Source: Escherichia phage JEP8. Taken from it: a DNA stretch of 64,000 nucleotides. A program made the position numbers and the translations under genes. The notes beneath the pieces were generated by a model. That model was not told the DNA's origin and searched no databases. It was given only the letters and a program-made list of their open reading frames with translations. Position 1 is the first letter of the stretch; each line of letters opens with the position of its first letter. Shown one piece after another: positions 5,346 to 32,378 of this stretch. The stretch lies in the sequence record MT764208.1. One strand, 5' to 3'.

Positions 5346-5657
5346 TTAAAGTTTTTCCATGATAACGGTCATAATTACATCTTCTGCGCGAGCGGTCAGA
5401 TTATCAGCGTCAGCATGTGGGCGGTTGGTTGTTACAGAGATAACACCGTTGCGCACTGGTTTGATATTGATATCAAGATGATCCGCGAAACGTTCGCCAG
5501 TTACAGAATGAATTTTGGTGTTAAATTCTTTTGCCAGTGCCTTGCGAACTTCACGAATCAGGGTAGCGTTTTTCAGTTGGTTCTCCGCGCTCATGGTCTT
5601 CTGGGTGTTAATGGTTCCGTCGAAGTCAATCATTGGCAGCGTTACGATGTATTTCAT
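5346..5657 (-). CDS. hypothetical small early protein (103 aa)
   Basis: ORF with promoter cassette 5703-5731 and RBS. Confidence 0.5.
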   Translation of the reverse strand: MKYIVTLPMIDFDGTINTQKTMSAENQLKNATLIREVRKALAKEFNTKIHSVTGERFADHLDINIKPVRNGVISVTTNRPHADADNLTARAEDVIMTVIMEKL

Positions 5658-5702
5658 TTTTGATTCTCCGTTTAAGAAAGTGTGTTTCGTTTTGATGTGT
5701 GT

Positions 5703-5731
5703 AGTATAGGGGATACGTGATCCCCTGTCAA
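5703..5731 (-). promoter_or_regulatory. early promoter TTGACA-N17-TATACT with palindromic spacer GGGGATCACGTATCCCC
   Basis: drives 5346..5657. Confidence 0.6.
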
Positions 5732-5744
5732 CAACTTTTTTGAA

Positions 5745-6221
5745 TTATTTTTCTTGATGCTCGCGCTCGTACTTTTCGAAATAAAATTCTACTGGCTGGT
5801 CATGAATTGACAGCAAGCCAAAGCGTTTAGCCGCTCGCAATCCCATATTGCGCTGAATGTACTTCTGGAAGTTCTCGCGTATACACTTACGCCAGTATTC
5901 TAAGCCCATACAGCTTTTATAAAGATTGCATTGCACACACGCCGGATTCATGTTATCAAGTATATCATGCTCCGGTTTATGCATTCCTACGACCTTATAC
6001 TTCCACAATCCATCATCATTACGGGCAATTCGTCCATTTTCATCATAGACTACCTTTGAGCGTCGCAATACTGGTTTGATGTGGTCTGCGTGCCAGCGAT
6101 CCCCTAGTTCCTCGCCACAATAGGCACAACGTCCACCGTATTTCATTTTCAGGATCTGGCGTTGCTCTTTCTTTGACAATTTTTTAGGTTTAGGGGCTTT
6201 CGCCCCTTCATTATCACACAT
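5745..6221 (-). CDS. HNH-family endonuclease (free-standing)
   Basis: C-x2-C ... H-A-D-H-I-K-P ... C-V-Q-C-N signature; directly downstream of ligase; true start may be internal Met (MKYGGR...). Confidence 0.6.
   Translation of the reverse strand: MCDNEGAKAPKPKKLSKKEQRQILKMKYGGRCAYCGEELGDRWHADHIKPVLRRSKVVYDENGRIARNDDGLWKYKVVGMHKPEHDILDNMNPACVQCNLYKSCMGLEYWRKCIRENFQKYIQRNMGLRAAKRFGLLSIHDQPVEFYFEKYEREHQEK
6192..6207 (-). promoter_or_regulatory. RNA stem-loop GGGGCGAAAGCCCC (GAAA tetraloop) at the ligase 3' end
   Basis: same element as at 18921-18936 and 31041-31056. Confidence 0.45.
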
Positions 6222-16592: not shown

Positions 16593-16621
16593 ATTATAGC
16601 GGGGATTTCTCCCCGCGTCAA
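16593..16621 (-). promoter_or_regulatory. early promoter TTGACG-N17-TATAAT with palindromic spacer CGGGGAGAAATCCCCGC
   Basis: between nrdA and nrdB. Confidence 0.6.
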
Positions 16622-18873: not shown

Positions 18874-18920
18874 ATTACCTCACTTCATATTTTAGCAGGA
18901 ACAAGTTTATCCTCCATATT

Positions 18921-18936
18921 GGGGGCTTTCGCCCCC
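18921..18936 (-). promoter_or_regulatory. RNA stem-loop GGGGGCGAAAGCCCCC immediately after td stop
   Basis: 6-bp GC stem with GAAA tetraloop 7 nt after the td stop, upstream of nrdA RBS. Confidence 0.55.
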
Positions 18937-18942
18937 TTTTGT

Positions 18943-20175
18943 TTATACTGCCATTTGAGCGGTGATCGCTGGATGGCTTTGATAGTTGTGAATTTTAAAG
19001 TCTTTCGGAGTCTTTGTCAATACCTCATCTAAAGATTTAAATTCCGGCAACTCGATTGTTGGTTTATCAAACGGAACACGGCTTAACTGTTCCATAACTT
19101 GATCAAAATGGTTTTTGTAAATGTGAGTATCTCCACCAGAGAAAATCAGTTCTCCTACCTCAAGGTCACACATTTTAGCTATGATGTGAGTTAACAGCGC
19201 ATAGCTGGCGACGTTAAAGGGCAAGCCCAAAAAGCTGTCTACGCTTCGCTGAAACCACATACAAGACAGTTTACCCTCATTGACATAGAATTGCACGAAC
19301 GGATGACATACACCTAATACAGCATTATGTGTTCCTTGTACGTTCCATGAGTCAATGATGATACGTCGATCCGTTGGATTGTTTTTAATTTGTTCAATCA
19401 CGTTTTGTAACTGGTCTTCCCAAATCTTCGGGCGATAGACATATTCTTCATCGTCTTTAGTGCTCGATGTGTCTACGTCCATACTAGCAAAGATCGTGGT
19501 ATCGGGTGCTAAAATATCCCCACCCAGATAATCACTATCAAGCAGATAACCGAAATAACCATCATCTACCCATTCCTGGAATCCCCACAAGCAATATGCA
19601 TCATTAACAAAATTAGATTGAGTCTTCCAGTGATCTGCTACTAAGAATTGATTATATTCAGAATCAAACTCTTCATAACGCATACCACGCCAGATAGCAC
19701 ATAAACGGTCTTCTGTGTCGTTGGTTGGCGTAAAGTCTTCTACCCACGGGTGTTTAAATGTATGTGTATATTTGCTCTTAACGCGCTTAATTTTGATTTC
19801 ACCGTGTGGATGAATCGGTTTGCGTCGCCATGCCATACCATACATATTGCCAACATTATAGCCGTTGAATCGTAGCGGATTCTTTTCTTTCATATCAAGA
19901 CAGTTGCCGCGCCAAATGTCGAAGGCTTCTTCGTCAAACTGACCGCGTGTAATTTCCTGTAATCGACGGCGGTCAAGTGATCCCTCCATAAACCATAGCA
20001 ACTCGCCAATTACAGAGGCTGTAGCCATCTTTTTAGTGGTCAGTAATGGGAAACCCTTGCTTAAATCAATTCGCATCTCTGCGCCGAATTTAGAGAGCGT
20101 ACCTACCCCCGTGCGGTCTTCACGAGGCCAGCCATTATCAAGAACATCACGCAATAGTTTCAAATATTCTTTCAT
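18943..20175 (-). CDS. td: thymidylate synthase with ~110-aa internal insertion
   Basis: N-terminal (DRTGTGT, TTKK), catalytic (CH.F.QF), and C-terminal (LGLPFNIASYALL, HPAITAQMAV) TS blocks present; 410 aa versus ~286 for T4 Td. Confidence 0.88.
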   Translation of the reverse strand: MKEYLKLLRDVLDNGWPREDRTGVGTLSKFGAEMRIDLSKGFPLLTTKKMATASVIGELLWFMEGSLDRRRLQEITRGQFDEEAFDIWRGNCLDMKEKNPLRFNGYNVGNMYGMAWRRKPIHPHGEIKIKRVKSKYTHTFKHPWVEDFTPTNDTEDRLCAIWRGMRYEEFDSEYNQFLVADHWKTQSNFVNDAYCLWGFQEWVDDGYFGYLLDSDYLGGDILAPDTTIFASMDVDTSSTKDDEEYVYRPKIWEDQLQNVIEQIKNNPTDRRIIIDSWNVQGTHNAVLGVCHPFVQFYVNEGKLSCMWFQRSVDSFLGLPFNVASYALLTHIIAKMCDLEVGELIFSGGDTHIYKNHFDQVMEQLSRVPFDKPTIELPEFKSLDEVLTKTPKDFKIHNYQSHPAITAQMAV

Positions 20176-27258: not shown

Positions 27259-27266
27259 TATAAATA
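27259..27266 (+). promoter_or_regulatory. T4-type late promoter TATAAATA for gene 34
   Basis: exact TATAAATA about 28 nt upstream of the gene 34 ATG, followed by AAGGAG RBS. Confidence 0.7.
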
Positions 27267-30200: not shown

Positions 30201-31035
30201 GAAAAACTCCTGGTCTATTATCGTTGGTGGTACTGGAACGGCGCAAGCAGTTAATAGTGGCGCTATCGCTTTCGGTCAAATCAATGATGGTGGAGTCGTC
30301 GAGCATTACGCCTTTGCTATGGAACACAATGGCGACGCGACAGCATATAGAGACTTTATTGCAGGTCGCAACCTGTATGCGAAACAAGGCGGTTTATACA
30401 TTGTTGACCAGTCTAATCCGGCAATGACTCGTTCCCCAGATGGTATGCTGAATATCGGTCACGGTGGAAGTGTTAACATCAAGGCAGGTCATCAAACGTT
30501 AACTACAGAGATCGCCGGACAGAAATATCAGATCGTACACGCAGGAAACGCCGACGAAGTTCTTAACCGTCGGTTTGTTAAGAATGCTGGCGATACAATG
30601 GTCGGTAAGCTGACTATGGATAATGCGCCTATTGTTTCTGTTAAACATGAAGCTAGCGCGGCAACCGCTCCGGCAATTGGTAACATCGGTTTCTGGAATA
30701 TGCGAGTTACTACCCAGAACATCAAAGAAACTTATCCAGAGAAGAAAAACGGTACTCTGATGCAATGGGGTACTGACGCGGACGGGCTTACCCAGCTTTG
30801 GTCCCCTGATGGTACTCATAAACATTATATCCGTTCCGGTACTGGTGGTCAATGGACCGCATGGGGTGAAATTTACACCAAACAGAATAAGCCTACCGCT
30901 CAGGAAATCGGGGCAGTAGTTGCAGAAGGTGGTTTAATGAACTCTATGACGGTGCGTGACTGGATCAAGGTTGGTAATGTTAAAATCATCGCCAATAATC
31001 TGACTCGTACCGTAGATTTTATCTGGGAAGACTAA
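27295..31035 (+). CDS. 34: long tail fibre proximal subunit (T4 gp34 homolog)
   Basis: 1246 aa; extensive blocks shared with T4 gp34 (ISTPLKIKT, SPKNFK...TW.A, RRGIARIAT repeats, C-terminal VRDWIKVGNV). Confidence 0.93.
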   Translation: MADFSQHFKATFGFDAGNEKVVNVALADKNVNTDAVNVEFFNYHNGITQYDTTRGYDQYGTTIYQNRPYYAKEDITKPAGDFDPTKWQALRTDPRWDYIAATSGDTPLQSGDYIAADGQFANLTFSMPTKPAEGDTITVKDIGGKCGVNELSFLSSGHEFYHNGNVYNRKWYCTTPYAMNYFIFVRNRWHVYQTGTEPRGVYAQPAIDAIQMQNGDQVFRRSSLGNITLVLPKFANNGDMIQTTDLDGLTATNHVTVKVHEHAEEQSIGTSGLKEIIGKRSGHGVFIFDKTENLWRLWDGDQSVRLKPIIDDTRLQPNSYVAVFGGRDVTLTLPTNVEPGDRIQVSMQYMHGNQNCRIITPTEDTKILMQKNMVQFPKRSEYPFNGTDTWTGVSELSFNAANDYVPYLEFSYSEGDDGKKYWLVAHAHPIVERVDPTRKDRVGVIALATQDETNKNHEDNPSDEVAVTPKVLANKTANETRRGIARIATQAETHQDTGSNFLDDVIVTPKKLNDCVATEARRGVMEIATQHETNEGLDDTRAITPKKLEERRASEDLAGIAEIVQVGGSAAARRGEAGTGIYNINDHAKIVTPKNINEVKATETSRGVGYLATDAEVQGATESTPQDALLITTRTLTKRTATESRTGIAEIATQEETNLGQSDNHIITPKKLHTRRATETLHGLAEIATQPEFDAGLDDARISTPLKIKTFFENAQRLKVDPTQGLNLTGDLWQGIMIRGLDATEDTKGVAKVATTQLTDAGQDDTTIITPKKLQDKKATEGKEGIIRVGTQAETVAGTLANVAISPKNFKYVVQTEDTWKATEARRGFLKVATQENCFVGDNLQGSTQELGNYQHDGIAVTPKGLNYALANFLPKMATAQNSLKLGNVEAAKWARRDIDQTIESNYTFNKNVNVKGDLGCLKSGSFETLSVTKNSTDVPSNGHLVLGERGVDGHTGITLHGTTASEGMKNSWSIIVGGTGTAQAVNSGAIAFGQINDGGVVEHYAFAMEHNGDATAYRDFIAGRNLYAKQGGLYIVDQSNPAMTRSPDGMLNIGHGGSVNIKAGHQTLTTEIAGQKYQIVHAGNADEVLNRRFVKNAGDTMVGKLTMDNAPIVSVKHEASAATAPAIGNIGFWNMRVTTQNIKETYPEKKNGTLMQWGTDADGLTQLWSPDGTHKHYIRSGTGGQWTAWGEIYTKQNKPTAQEIGAVVAEGGLMNSMTVRDWIKVGNVKIIANNLTRTVDFIWED

Positions 31036-31040
31036 TTAAA

Positions 31041-31056
31041 GGGGGCGAAAGCCCCC
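31041..31056 (+). promoter_or_regulatory. RNA stem-loop GGGGGCGAAAGCCCCC (GAAA tetraloop) between genes 34 and 35
   Basis: perfect 6-bp GC stem with GNRA loop immediately after gene 34 stop; same element recurs at 6192-6207 and 18921-18936. Confidence 0.55.
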
Positions 31057-31068
31057 TATGGGGTTATT

Positions 31069-32208
31069 ATGACACAAGATATAGAATTACGCAACACTGG
31101 AATTAGGTTTGCGCATTTCGATGAGGACTCCGCGACATTTACCAGCATTTCAGAAAACAACTCTGTGATGTATAAGCTGGAAGTGCGCGGATCTAATGCG
31201 GATTCTACCAAACCAGCAAGGATTAGATTTAATGGAGTGGAGATCGTTGGCACTGGCTATGAAAATGGCCTAAATTTTAAAGTTCTTACTCCAACTGGAC
31301 AACTACACGAAGAAAAGGTATTCTATGGTCGCGGTGCTGTTTTGGCAATGCGTGATTATCTTTCTTTGCTGAAAGGTGACTATATCATTGCGATGGCAAC
31401 GCATGGAGAATTGTTTGCAGATCCGGTAAGTGATGTTGTATTTTCTAAGCTGGGTTCTGTATCATTCCCGAATCACATTTTGTTACAGCAAATGCCTCGT
31501 GTATCCTATGCAGCAATTTATTCTACGAAAATGGGTAAAATTGTGTGCGAAGGTATGCAAGCGACCCACGGGGAAGGACAAGATTCATCTATACAAATTG
31601 AGAAAGTCTATGATACTATAGATGATCTTGCTATAACAGGAACACCACAACGATTTTTAGATTATCCGGTTGAGTATGTTAGCGAAGATGCCGAACATTT
31701 CGAGCTAATACAATGGCCTCACGATGAGATCAGCGCCCCACTTGAGGATTTTAACATAAAGGCAGGTGACAAACTATCAATATCCTTTGAATTGTTCCGT
31801 GATAGTGCCGCAGCCGCAGCCAACGTAACAGCGCGTTTCTATCACAACTACTTCACCGATGGACAATATAAAACTGGTGTTCGATACAATGCCAGCAAAA
31901 AAGATCAATGGGAAAAGTTTGAAGCCGTCTATACCGTACCGGAAGGAGTTGATAGTGTAGTAACTGGTTGTATCAGATATCCAACCAACTCAAATGAAGG
32001 TATTGTTAAAATTAGAAACATACTAATAACGCCGATCAGTGGAGTCGTCAAAACTACTGGTCCTACTTCATTTGGTGTTAATGGTGTTAGAACAACTCAT
32101 ATTCAGGATAACGGTGATTTTACTAACCCTGTAATGAGTCTTCTTAAGCTGCCTAGAGACAATAAACATATCACATCCAACAACTTTAAAGAGTTCGATG
32201 TTGATTAA
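31069..32208 (+). CDS. 35: long tail fibre hinge connector (T4 gp35 homolog)
   Basis: 379 aa (T4 gp35 372 aa) in the gene 35 position. Confidence 0.8.
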   Translation: MTQDIELRNTGIRFAHFDEDSATFTSISENNSVMYKLEVRGSNADSTKPARIRFNGVEIVGTGYENGLNFKVLTPTGQLHEEKVFYGRGAVLAMRDYLSLLKGDYIIAMATHGELFADPVSDVVFSKLGSVSFPNHILLQQMPRVSYAAIYSTKMGKIVCEGMQATHGEGQDSSIQIEKVYDTIDDLAITGTPQRFLDYPVEYVSEDAEHFELIQWPHDEISAPLEDFNIKAGDKLSISFELFRDSAAAAANVTARFYHNYFTDGQYKTGVRYNASKKDQWEKFEAVYTVPEGVDSVVTGCIRYPTNSNEGIVKIRNILITPISGVVKTTGPTSFGVNGVRTTHIQDNGDFTNPVMSLLKLPRDNKHITSNNFKEFDVD

Positions 32209-32218
32209 CATTTTTTTA

Positions 32219-32250
32219 CAAGCCGATCCATGTGGTCGGCTTTATTTTTA
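32219..32250 (+). terminator. putative intrinsic terminator after gene 35
   Basis: hairpin AGCCGA-N9-TCGGCT followed by TTATTTTTAT. Confidence 0.55.
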
Positions 32251-32370
32251 TACAGTTGGTTAAAATGTAACCAAAACGAAGAAAGATCTTTAGAATAATA
32301 GAAAATTTGTTTCGGTTAAAAATTAGTCAGTGCCTACGGCACGTCGCGAAGCGATATTTTGTTAACATTC

Positions 32371-32378
32371 TATAAATA
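32371..32378 (+). promoter_or_regulatory. T4-type late promoter TATAAATA for gene 36
   Basis: exact TATAAATA ~33 nt upstream of gene 36 ATG. Confidence 0.65.

Follow-up and report, generated by a model that had tools for sequence, protein, structure and literature searches.

Hairpins with GAAA tetraloops after the td, gene 34 and gene 30 stop codons of a Krischvirus belong to a known class of gene-end stem-loops

Stable tetraloop hairpins downstream of stop codons have been known since the 1980s. Tuerk and colleagues in 1988 and d'Aubenton-Carafa and colleagues in 1990 reportedly described terminators with extra-stable tetraloops (GNRA or UUCG) in E. coli and in the intercistronic regions of phage T4. 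RNA structure is also known to throttle the homing-endonuclease genes of T4-type phages, I-TevI and Aeh1 mobE being examples.

The stem-loops of phages Phi1 and RB49 are the closest described relatives of the hairpins considered here. They lie downstream of stop codons and have been published as the terminator/attenuator part of PeSLs, or promoter-early stem-loop cassettes, of which 52 are listed for Phi1 (Arbiol et al. 2010, PMC2839356), with "GN-loop-CN" as the stem-loop consensus (Comeau et al. 2014, PMC4122927). One PeSL stem-loop, which has no U-run, cut lacZ expression as strongly as rrnB T1, and PeSL-mediated shuffling and mini-circles have been documented (PMC2839356). In E. coli, processed 3ʹ ends are likewise known to carry stem-loops without a U-tract (Dar & Sorek 2018, cited by PMC13613805). 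Finally, intercistronic stabiliser hairpins set subunit stoichiometry through selective RNA processing and stabilisation (e.g. PMC4423207).

The DNA analysed here is a stretch of 64,000 nt from record MT764208.1 (Escherichia phage JEP8), which we refer to in its entirety as the window. Queries of 4 kb and then 25 kb identified it as a Krischvirus, an RB49/Phi1-like T4-type coliphage; about 60 Krischvirus genomes, RB49, Phi1 and JSE among them, match the window queries with 95–98% identity. Gene names follow the Phi1 annotation. It assigns td to the ORF that ends at 18943, with nrdA next; gene 34 to a 1246-aa ORF with its end at 31035, with gene 35 next; and gene 30 (DNA ligase) to a 500-aa ORF with its end at 6214, with a gene for an HNH endonuclease next. 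These names agree with the assignments of td, gene 34 and gene 30 made in an earlier note on this DNA. For genome-wide searches, the complete Phi1 genome (164 kb) was put together from five loci. An Rfam scan of the whole window gave no matches at the gathering threshold, and hence no curated RNA family, and a literature search found no transcript-end data for Krischvirus. The three hairpins, and the stop codons that they follow, are listed below.

6192–6207, − strand: copy 1, the AGGGGCGAAAGCCCCU hairpin, 6 nt past the gene 30 stop codon; predicted dG −11.6 kcal/mol
6214–6216, − strand: stop codon (TGA) of gene 30 (DNA ligase)
18921–18936, − strand: copy 2, the GGGGGCGAAAGCCCCC hairpin, 6 nt past the td stop codon; predicted dG −13.3 kcal/mol
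18943–18945, − strand: stop codon (TAA) of td
31041–31056, + strand: copy 3, the GGGGGCGAAAGCCCCC hairpin, 5 nt past the gene 34 stop codon; 7 bp if the pair A31040-U31057 is counted
31033–31035, + strand: stop codon (TAA) of gene 34

The earlier note had described one identical 16-nt element in three places. All three hairpins are where it had put them, and two, copies 2 and 3, are exact copies of GGGGGCGAAAGCCCCC; copy 1 reads AGGGGCGAAAGCCCCT, with two substitutions that change the outermost G-C pair to A-U. The proposed structure, a 6-bp stem with a GAAA loop in the transcribed orientation, was reproduced by folding of each copy (dG −11.6 to −13.3 kcal/mol), and the hairpin survives when each copy is folded in 81–96 nt of context. 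Likewise, the claim that the element lies within ~10 nt of a stop codon was confirmed, since each copy starts 5–6 nt past the stop on the transcribed strand. No match to the 16-mer, with up to two mismatches allowed, was found in 100 dinucleotide shuffles. A search for further copies, which the note had proposed, was run on the complete Phi1 genome and found these three alone; the closest other sequence, and the only relative found genome-wide, is GGGGGCAAATGCCCCC, within gene 49.

With respect to stem (5–14 bp), loop (3–8 nt) and G/C content, each copy has the hairpin of a canonical Rho-independent terminator. In all three copies the loop on the sense strand is a GNRA tetraloop (G-N-R-A), GAAA closed by C-G, although the loop is not kept in relatives, being UAAA in phage Skers and UUU in a metagenomic relative (L140). 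The U-tract of such a terminator, ~5 or more U in the 8 nt 3ʹ of the stem on the transcribed strand, is missing, as the earlier note had pointed out: the sense-strand tails of the three copies, AAACCUAA, AAUAUGGA and UAUGGGGU, have 1–3 U in 8 nt (one for copy 1, two for copy 2 and three for copy 3). Furthermore, no copy closes a transcription unit. On the opposite strand, the tails of copy 2 (TTTTGTTT), copy 3 (TTTAATTA) and copy 1 (TCATTATC) are rich in T, more so than the sense tails, an observation that does not favour a sense-strand reading. A terminator scanner called copy 2 canonical on the opposite (+) strand only, and called copy 3 weakly, again only on the opposite strand. The hairpins of copies 2 and 3 are set in common flanks, AAA...(A)AUAUGG, a sign that copying may have occurred.

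The transcription unit around copy 3 is delimited by two features.

27259–27266, + strand: late promoter TATAAATA upstream of gene 34, the sole one for genes 34–35
32220–32252, + strand: canonical intrinsic terminator after gene 35, with a 9-bp stem followed by TATTTTTAT

There are only two + strand late promoters, at 27259 (before gene 34) and at 32371 (before gene 36), and there is no promoter between copy 3 and the gene 35 ATG (31069), which is 12 nt away. Since the sole late promoter is at 27259 and a canonical terminator is found only after gene 35, gene 35 has to be transcribed through copy 3. Judged by its sequence, the terminator at 32220–32252 is the true end of the 34–35 transcription unit. 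Copy 3 was found in 58 of 58 Krischvirus records, with no replacement seen; it varies only in the loop (UAAA in Skers) and by 1-nt indels in the flanks. Sigma-70-like sites occur on the − strand within genes 35–37.

Copy 2 is flanked by a promoter and by a candidate processing site.

18992–19020, − strand: sigma-70-type promoter TTGACA-17-TAAAAT inside the 3ʹ end of td, with 11 of 12 matches
18905–18915, − strand: RegB/S1-like candidate site GGAGGAUAAAC, beginning 5 nt past copy 2

The promoter is ~55 nt upstream of copy 2, is kept in 10 genomes and is the only strong sigma-70-type promoter upstream of nrdA. Hence, the nrdA 5ʹ leader would contain copy 2, which precedes the ATG of that gene (18873) by 47 nt. 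That nrdA has its own promoter, upstream of the hairpin, does not sit well with the idea that copy 2 lowers nrdA expression. On the + strand, no late promoter was found in the 18.9 kb upstream of copy 2. Taken together, the promoterless gene 35, the position of the nrdA promoter upstream of copy 2, and the location of copy 1 within the HNH ORF argue that the copies are not efficient terminators.

The candidate site past copy 2 agrees at 10 of 11 positions with the RegB/S1 target consensus, GGAGRAYARAA (PMC1702504), but sites of this type are not enriched (five in the genome versus 3.1 in shuffles), so that we regard it as a weak lead and not as an established RegB processing site. No RegB-like motif adjoins copies 1 and 3. 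GGAGGAUAAAC could be the source of a cut downstream of copy 2; it also resembles a Shine-Dalgarno sequence for a 9-codon mini-ORF with a TTG start (18875–18904), which ends 1 nt before the nrdA ATG.

Of 58 Krischvirus records, 50 have an intact copy 2; in the other eight (LF73P4, Makalu_001–003, SSG23, SFHK24, E26 and probably 011D4), another hairpin and an nrdA.1 ORF stand in its place. The segment lost consists of the hairpin and the following 35 nt of the 47-nt spacer, and the segment gained consists of GCGGGGAGAAAUCCCCGC and a DUF4326 ORF annotated as NrdA.1. The left junction of the replacement is the edge of the hairpin, and the incoming hairpin has the same sequence as the one after nrdA, which is part of a textbook PeSL.

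16593–16621, − strand: PeSL after nrdA, with the GAAA-loop hairpin GCGGGGAGAAAUCCCCGC and the promoter TTGAC-17-TATAAT

Copy 1 differs from the others in that it overlaps a coding sequence.

5745–6221, − strand: HNH endonuclease ORF, whose ATG (6219–6221) follows an AGAGG Shine-Dalgarno sequence and shares nucleotides with the end of gene 30

The hairpin starts 14 nt into the annotated HNH ORF, spans +14 to +29 and forms codons 5–10 (EGAKAP). It is carried by an N-terminal insert of eight codons, DNEGAKAP, encoded by GATAATGAAGGGGCGAAAGCCCCT. In an alignment, HNH homologues begin at residues equivalent to KKLSKKEQ, and the closest homologue from outside Krischvirus (70% identity) begins MC-KPKKLTKK, with exactly DNEGAKAP missing. 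The contig of that homologue (L149) has the same ligase-HNH order, a ligase that is 70% identical, and a TAATG overlap, and no hairpin is present at its ligase-HNH junction. Relative to this junction, copy 1 is an in-frame 24-nt indel, from +7 to +30 of the HNH ORF; in Krischvirus, the 24 extra nt also provide the stop codon of the ligase gene, 6 nt ahead of the stem. That the reading frame is kept across the indel argues for translation of HNH from the upstream ATG and on through the hairpin. In the 10 Krischvirus genomes fetched, the copy 1 region shows no differences, but the whole neighbourhood is just as invariant, and we therefore do not take this invariance as a mark of selection or of homing sweeps.

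Among the many post-stop G/C stem-loops of this phage, the three copies form a single small sequence family. We surveyed Phi1 for hairpins with at least five G-C pairs located 0–25 nt past the stop codons of ORFs no shorter than 50 aa. This census gave 50 hairpins, some of which are opposite-strand readings of the same hairpin. Automatic sorting assigned a T-run to 17, placed 8 in TTGAC-17-TATAAT and left 25 with neither. The T-run hairpins are canonical terminators, including those with UUCG loops after genes 32 and 38, and the promoter-linked hairpins sit between or over the hexamers. Once antisense artefacts are removed, ~10 hairpins are genuinely naked, among them the three copies and those after genes 41, 19 and uvsW. 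GNRA or UUCG tetraloops of the Phi1 post-stop hairpins are in the sense orientation in 10 cases and reversed in none. Moreover, several further families of near-identical hairpins, such as AGGGGAUCGGUGAUCCCCU and GGGGGUAGUAAUAUACCCCC, are present in the genome, so that the recurrence of one hairpin sequence is not unusual here.

Much connects the copies to the stem-loop of PeSLs: they occur in the same genomes, have the same G-run/C-run stem (G5C-GAAA-GC5, 5–6 nt past stops, and inside an ORF for copy 1), are placed between a stop codon and the next Shine-Dalgarno sequence, and are tied to cassette exchange by the swapping of copy 2 in 8 of 58 genomes. In contrast, the PeSL promoter, TTGACA-N17-TATAAT overlapping or adjoining the hairpin, is lacking at copies 1 and 3, and the nearest to copy 2 is 55 nt upstream, inside td. 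PeSLs are also found beside ORFans in hyperplastic regions, whereas the copies flank the core genes td/nrdA, 34/35 and 30/HNH, and copy 1 is within an ORF. We therefore reject full PeSL membership on the grounds of promoter and hyperplastic-region association. A change between related genomes is seen at the junction of copy 2 (8 of 58) and is suggested for copy 1 (the indel relative to L149), and none is seen at copy 3. If the strong reduction of reporter expression by the PeSL stem-loop of Arbiol et al. is valid here, the word "leaky", which we use below, may be wrong.

At least five Krischvirus GenBank records already annotate putative terminators at copies 2 and 3, those of G37-3, G2248, TB34 and Makalu phages carrying ARNOLD-type "terminator" features; in the Makalu_003 record, both junction terminators are annotated on the strand opposite to the genes. 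The earlier note had seen in the copies a dedicated RNA element rather than a terminator. The second half of this claim holds to the extent that the copies are not efficient terminators: read-through is needed and the U-tract is missing. "Dedicated" has to be dropped, given ~50 post-stop G/C hairpins in Phi1, a published PeSL class (PMC2839356, PMC4122927), the terminators annotated in at least five records, and the combination of hairpin and U-run at the three junctions in distant relatives. The copies belong to a known class, that of the Krischvirus GN-loop-CN stem-loops and terminator-type tetraloop hairpins; the finding is an ordinary one, and there is no dedicated novel element.

The same 16-mer is found in many other phages. 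An exact-match scan of IMG/VR gave at least 121 occurrences in at least 120 stretches, on unrelated contigs with a G+C content of 30–71%. Of the 121 occurrences listed, 98 (81%) are 0–25 nt past the stop of an ORF of at least 60 codons in the GAAA orientation, and only 7 of the 121 are post-ORF solely in the TTTC orientation. For the 98 post-ORF matches among those listed, the modal distance from stop to hairpin is 6 nt, and the 8 nt past the hairpin contain five or more T in 31, four in 28 and three or fewer in 39. A Shine-Dalgarno sequence and a start codon follow within 60 nt in ~40% (29 of 70 scored among the matches listed), whether or not there is a U-run; the upstream flank is A-rich in 5 of the 39 U-poor copies listed. 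From these sequence patterns, we conclude that the 16-mer is a convergent, sense-oriented gene-end hairpin that is often but not always a canonical terminator. The bias in loop orientation, seen in 3 of 3 copies here, in Phi1 (10 versus 0) and among the listed IMG/VR matches (98 versus 7), bears out the earlier suggestion of an RNA-level element oriented with transcription, and favours RNA-level selection over a purely DNA-level role.

Comparison of the same junctions in more distant phages suggests that gene-end hairpins recur there but are labile. In the metagenomic relative L140 (87% gp35 identity), the 34/35 junction keeps the stem, as GGGGGC-UUU-GCCCCC, with the tail UUUUGGAG (UUUU). Pseudomonas phage PspYZU05 has AGGAGGC-GAAA-GCCUCCU followed by UUUUUAUC (UUUUU) between td and nrdA, 5 nt past the td stop; this stem is unlike copy 2 in sequence, and still fully paired. 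A third relative (L148, 51% ligase identity) has, after gene 30, a 9-bp stem with a GUAA loop and the tail UUUUUGUU (UUUUU). No 34/35 hairpin is present in T2, RB43 or TG1, where the gap of 0–8 nt leaves no room for one; in T2, a UUCG hairpin is placed after gene 35 instead. Hence, we reject the hairpin as a conserved feature of T4-type 34/35 junctions, and it is dispensable for tail-fibre gene expression in general. Within the 58 Krischvirus genomes, identity at the copy 2 and copy 3 sites is 95–100%, but stem conservation carries little weight because sequences within the genus are 95–99% identical. Thus, as far as these comparisons go, junction hairpins recur, shift, are exchanged, and gain or lose U-tracts; they are labile punctuation and not a conserved dedicated device.

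What is the function of the three hairpins? From their presence, stability, position and sense orientation, the absent U-tract, the operon architecture, the class membership and the polymorphisms that we observed, we infer attenuation, 3ʹ-end protection and an effect on expression ratios. Specifically, we propose, with moderate confidence, that the three RNA hairpins are of the terminator type but leaky, marking or protecting the 3ʹ end of the cistron before them and reducing expression of what follows. Once the stop codon of td, gene 34 or gene 30 has been transcribed, six base pairs, five or six of them G-C, would form in the nascent RNA as a stem under a C(GAAA)G tetraloop. With no U-tract, most polymerases would read through, as they have to for gene 35, for nrdA transcripts begun inside td and for the HNH ORF, and the hairpin would end only a minority of transcripts. 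Its chief role would come after cleavage or termination of the RNA downstream, when it would bar 3ʹ→5ʹ exonucleases, such that the upstream cistron (td, 34 or ligase) would hold a protected 3ʹ end and out-express the downstream one. At copy 3, unequal output would suit the need for gp34 and gp35, expected to be 3:1. At copy 1, ligase would be expected far above the homing endonuclease, and since the hairpin begins so early in the HNH ORF, at +14, it probably also restricts de novo starts of HNH translation. At the DNA level, the same hairpins may mark module boundaries for cassette exchange and serve as recombination junctions.

The copies resemble tetraloop Rho-independent terminators in their short G/C stem, their C(GAAA)G loop and their position a few nt past a stop; furthermore, the identical 16-mer has a U-run in about a third of the listed matches in other phages, and relatives have U-runs at the same junctions. 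They differ in that they have no sense U-tract and stand in operons whose layout requires read-through. With stabiliser or protective 3ʹ stem-loops at processed or Rho-dependent ends, they have in common a stable U-less hairpin on the 3ʹ side of a cistron within an operon, genes that plausibly need to be expressed unequally (gp34 over gp35, ligase over homing endonuclease) and, just downstream of copy 2, the candidate endonuclease site; this resemblance would be one of mechanism only, by analogy. The control of I-TevI and Aeh1 mobE by RNA structure is matched by copy 1 only, which falls where translation of HNH starts, in a free-standing gene that is coupled to the essential gene before it. 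Here the difference is that copy 1 follows the start codon and leaves the Shine-Dalgarno sequence free.

Other readings have to be weighed against our proposal. If the transcripts of td, gene 34 and gene 30 ended efficiently at the hairpins, as at plain Rho-independent terminators, this would account for the ARNOLD-type features in the G37-3, G2248, TB34 and Makalu records, for the canonical terminators at the same junctions in L140, PspYZU05 and L148, and for the rrnB T1-like activity of a U-less PeSL stem-loop in the lacZ assay (PMC2839356). We nonetheless consider efficient termination very unlikely, given 1–3 T in 8 nt on the sense strand, a gene 35 without a promoter past copy 3 in an operon whose canonical terminator follows gene 35, an nrdA promoter upstream of copy 2, and a copy 1 within the HNH ORF. 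Termination on the opposite strand, of anti-late or anti-early RNA, would render the sense position after stop codons incidental. This is suggested by the T-rich opposite tails, the + strand call for copy 2, the Makalu_003 annotation and the sigma-70-like sites on the − strand within genes 35–37. However, A-richness next to the copies is due in part to TAA stops and AT-rich spacers, and U-poor copies elsewhere mostly lack A-rich upstream flanks (present in 5 of 39 among the matches listed). Moreover, the 18.9 kb that precede copy 2 contain no + strand late promoter, and the sense strand carries GAAA in every copy and in 98 versus 7 of the listed IMG/VR matches; we therefore regard opposite-strand termination as highly improbable.

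A role mainly in DNA, with the hairpins as recombination junctions or module boundaries, promoterless relatives of PeSLs spread by copying without a selected RNA function, draws on the exchange of copy 2 for a hairpin and ORF in 8 of 58 genomes with a junction at the hairpin edge, on the discrete 24-nt indel at copy 1, on the common flanks of copies 2 and 3, and on several near-identical hairpin families in a genome type for which PeSL shuffling and mini-circles are documented (PMC2839356). Neither sense orientation of the loop nor position after a stop would matter for DNA recombination, yet both biases are seen here and in unrelated phages; L140 keeps the stem under a different loop and PspYZU05 has a different stem that is fully paired. 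A role mainly at the DNA level thus seems very unlikely to us. The last reading is that of a barrier in translational coupling, whereby HNH, gene 35 or the mini-ORF in the nrdA leader would be translated only or mainly by ribosomes that terminate upstream and melt the stem. The constant distance of 5–6 nt from the stop would allow a terminating ribosome to open the 5ʹ arm. Copy 1 lies at +14 of an ORF whose ATG overlaps the ligase stop, and its in-frame insertion has been kept despite eight added codons; copy 3 ends 3 nt before the gene 35 Shine-Dalgarno sequence, GGGG, with which its C-run could pair alternatively. RNA structure throttling T4-type homing-endonuclease genes provides a precedent. 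Against this, 47 nt separate copy 2 from the start codon of nrdA, the 16-mer has no fixed distance to the next start among the matches listed (within 60 nt in 29 of 70), and the main stem is predicted to be far more stable than the CCCC/GGGG alternative. A coupling gate is thus plausible for copies 1 and 3 and does not fit copy 2, and as an account of the hairpins it is unlikely.

Beyond this phage, U-tract-less C(GAAA)G G/C hairpins ~6 nt past stops might constitute a widespread, unformalised class of cistron-end punctuation in phages: non-terminating, 3ʹ-protecting, ratio-setting and copied between gene ends. We offer this as a speculation, and a doubtful one. In its favour are the ~40% of the 98 listed post-ORF 16-mers with three or fewer T in the next 8 nt, and the insertion of one hairpin, in frame, into a homing-endonuclease ORF.

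In general terms, this biology was known before; the stem-loops of this genome family were described in 2010. Automated pipelines annotate the hairpin sites inconsistently, as a terminator on either strand or as nothing; according to the operon layout, the sites cannot be full stops. If our proposal of leaky, end-protecting hairpins is correct, they would help an RB49-type phage, which lacks the middle-mode transcription of T4, to tune the output of neighbouring genes without extra promoters, and they would explain the swapping of cassettes at defined boundaries.

The td/nrdA junction differs among Krischvirus genomes. In roughly 8 of 58 (variant loci L129 and L152), a DUF4326 ORF lies between td and nrdA; it carries the annotation NrdA.1, as in T4, and its stop codon overlaps the ATG of nrdA. 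In the remaining genomes, the window included, td and nrdA are separated only by a 47-nt spacer that contains a different hairpin (window 18875-18920, - strand). Hence, the genus is polymorphic for the nrdA.1 module. The td product also varies in length between phages: it is 410 aa in the window (18943-20175, - strand) and 406-411 aa in relatives, roughly 120 residues longer than the ~286-aa products of T2 and TG1. The T4 product is likewise ~286 aa.

Three features of the window lie around this junction and beyond nrdA:

18992-19020, - strand: near-consensus σ70 promoter, TTGACA-17-TAAAAT, within td, at the 3ʹ end of its coding region
18875-18915, - strand: GGAGGAUAAAC and adjoining mini-ORF, between nrdA and copy 2, the GAAA-loop hairpin that follows td
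16593-16621, - strand: textbook promoter-early stem-loop (PeSL) after nrdA, TTGACG + GCGGGGAGAAAUCCCCGC + TATAAT

The promoter inside td presumably drives early transcription of nrdA. The mini-ORF begins 0 nt after GGAGGAUAAAC with a TTG start and encodes nine codons (LFLLKYEVR), and its TAA is 1 nt upstream of the nrdA ATG. Together, GGAGGAUAAAC and the mini-ORF may form an nrdA-coupled leader ORF or serve as a target of the endonuclease RegB; two other Phi1 ORFs use the same GGAGGATAAA motif as a Shine-Dalgarno sequence. The PeSL is 13 nt downstream of the nrdA stop codon, and GCGGGGAGAAAUCCCCGC fills the whole 17-nt spacer between TTGACG and TATAAT. In genomes that carry nrdA.1, copy 2 gives way to a hairpin of this sequence.

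The Phi1 genome holds several hairpin families whose members are nearly identical (examples are in the window 5657-5745 region and in L002). Five or more copies of AGGGGAUC-NNN-GAUCCCCU are present, every one within a promoter, and the three copies of GGGGGUAGUAAUAUACCCCC have a −10-like TAATAT in the loop. One hairpin related to the GAAA-loop copies is intragenic, with UUUGUCAAUUG on its 3ʹ side:

L134:39157-39172 (Phi1, outside the window): GGGGGCAUUUGCCCCC, in the 5ʹ part of gene 49 (endonuclease VII)

In T4 gene 49, an internal hairpin controls nested products.

Among the late genes, two σ70-like sites are antisense to the gene 34/35 region, and a T2 hairpin occupies the tail-fibre cluster:

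30824-30852, - strand: TTGACC-17-TATAAT, 11/12
31320-31348, - strand: TTGCCA-17-TAGAAT, 10/12
L131:21065-21110 (T2): hairpin GGGAGCC-UUCG-GGUUCCC + UUUUU, after gene 35

Early “anti-late” RNA might originate from the antisense sites. The T2 hairpin immediately precedes the gene 36 late promoter, TATAAATA, whereas in Krischvirus gene 35 is followed by a terminator, and hairpins follow genes 34 and 36. The punctuation of the tail-fibre operon has thus moved between genera.
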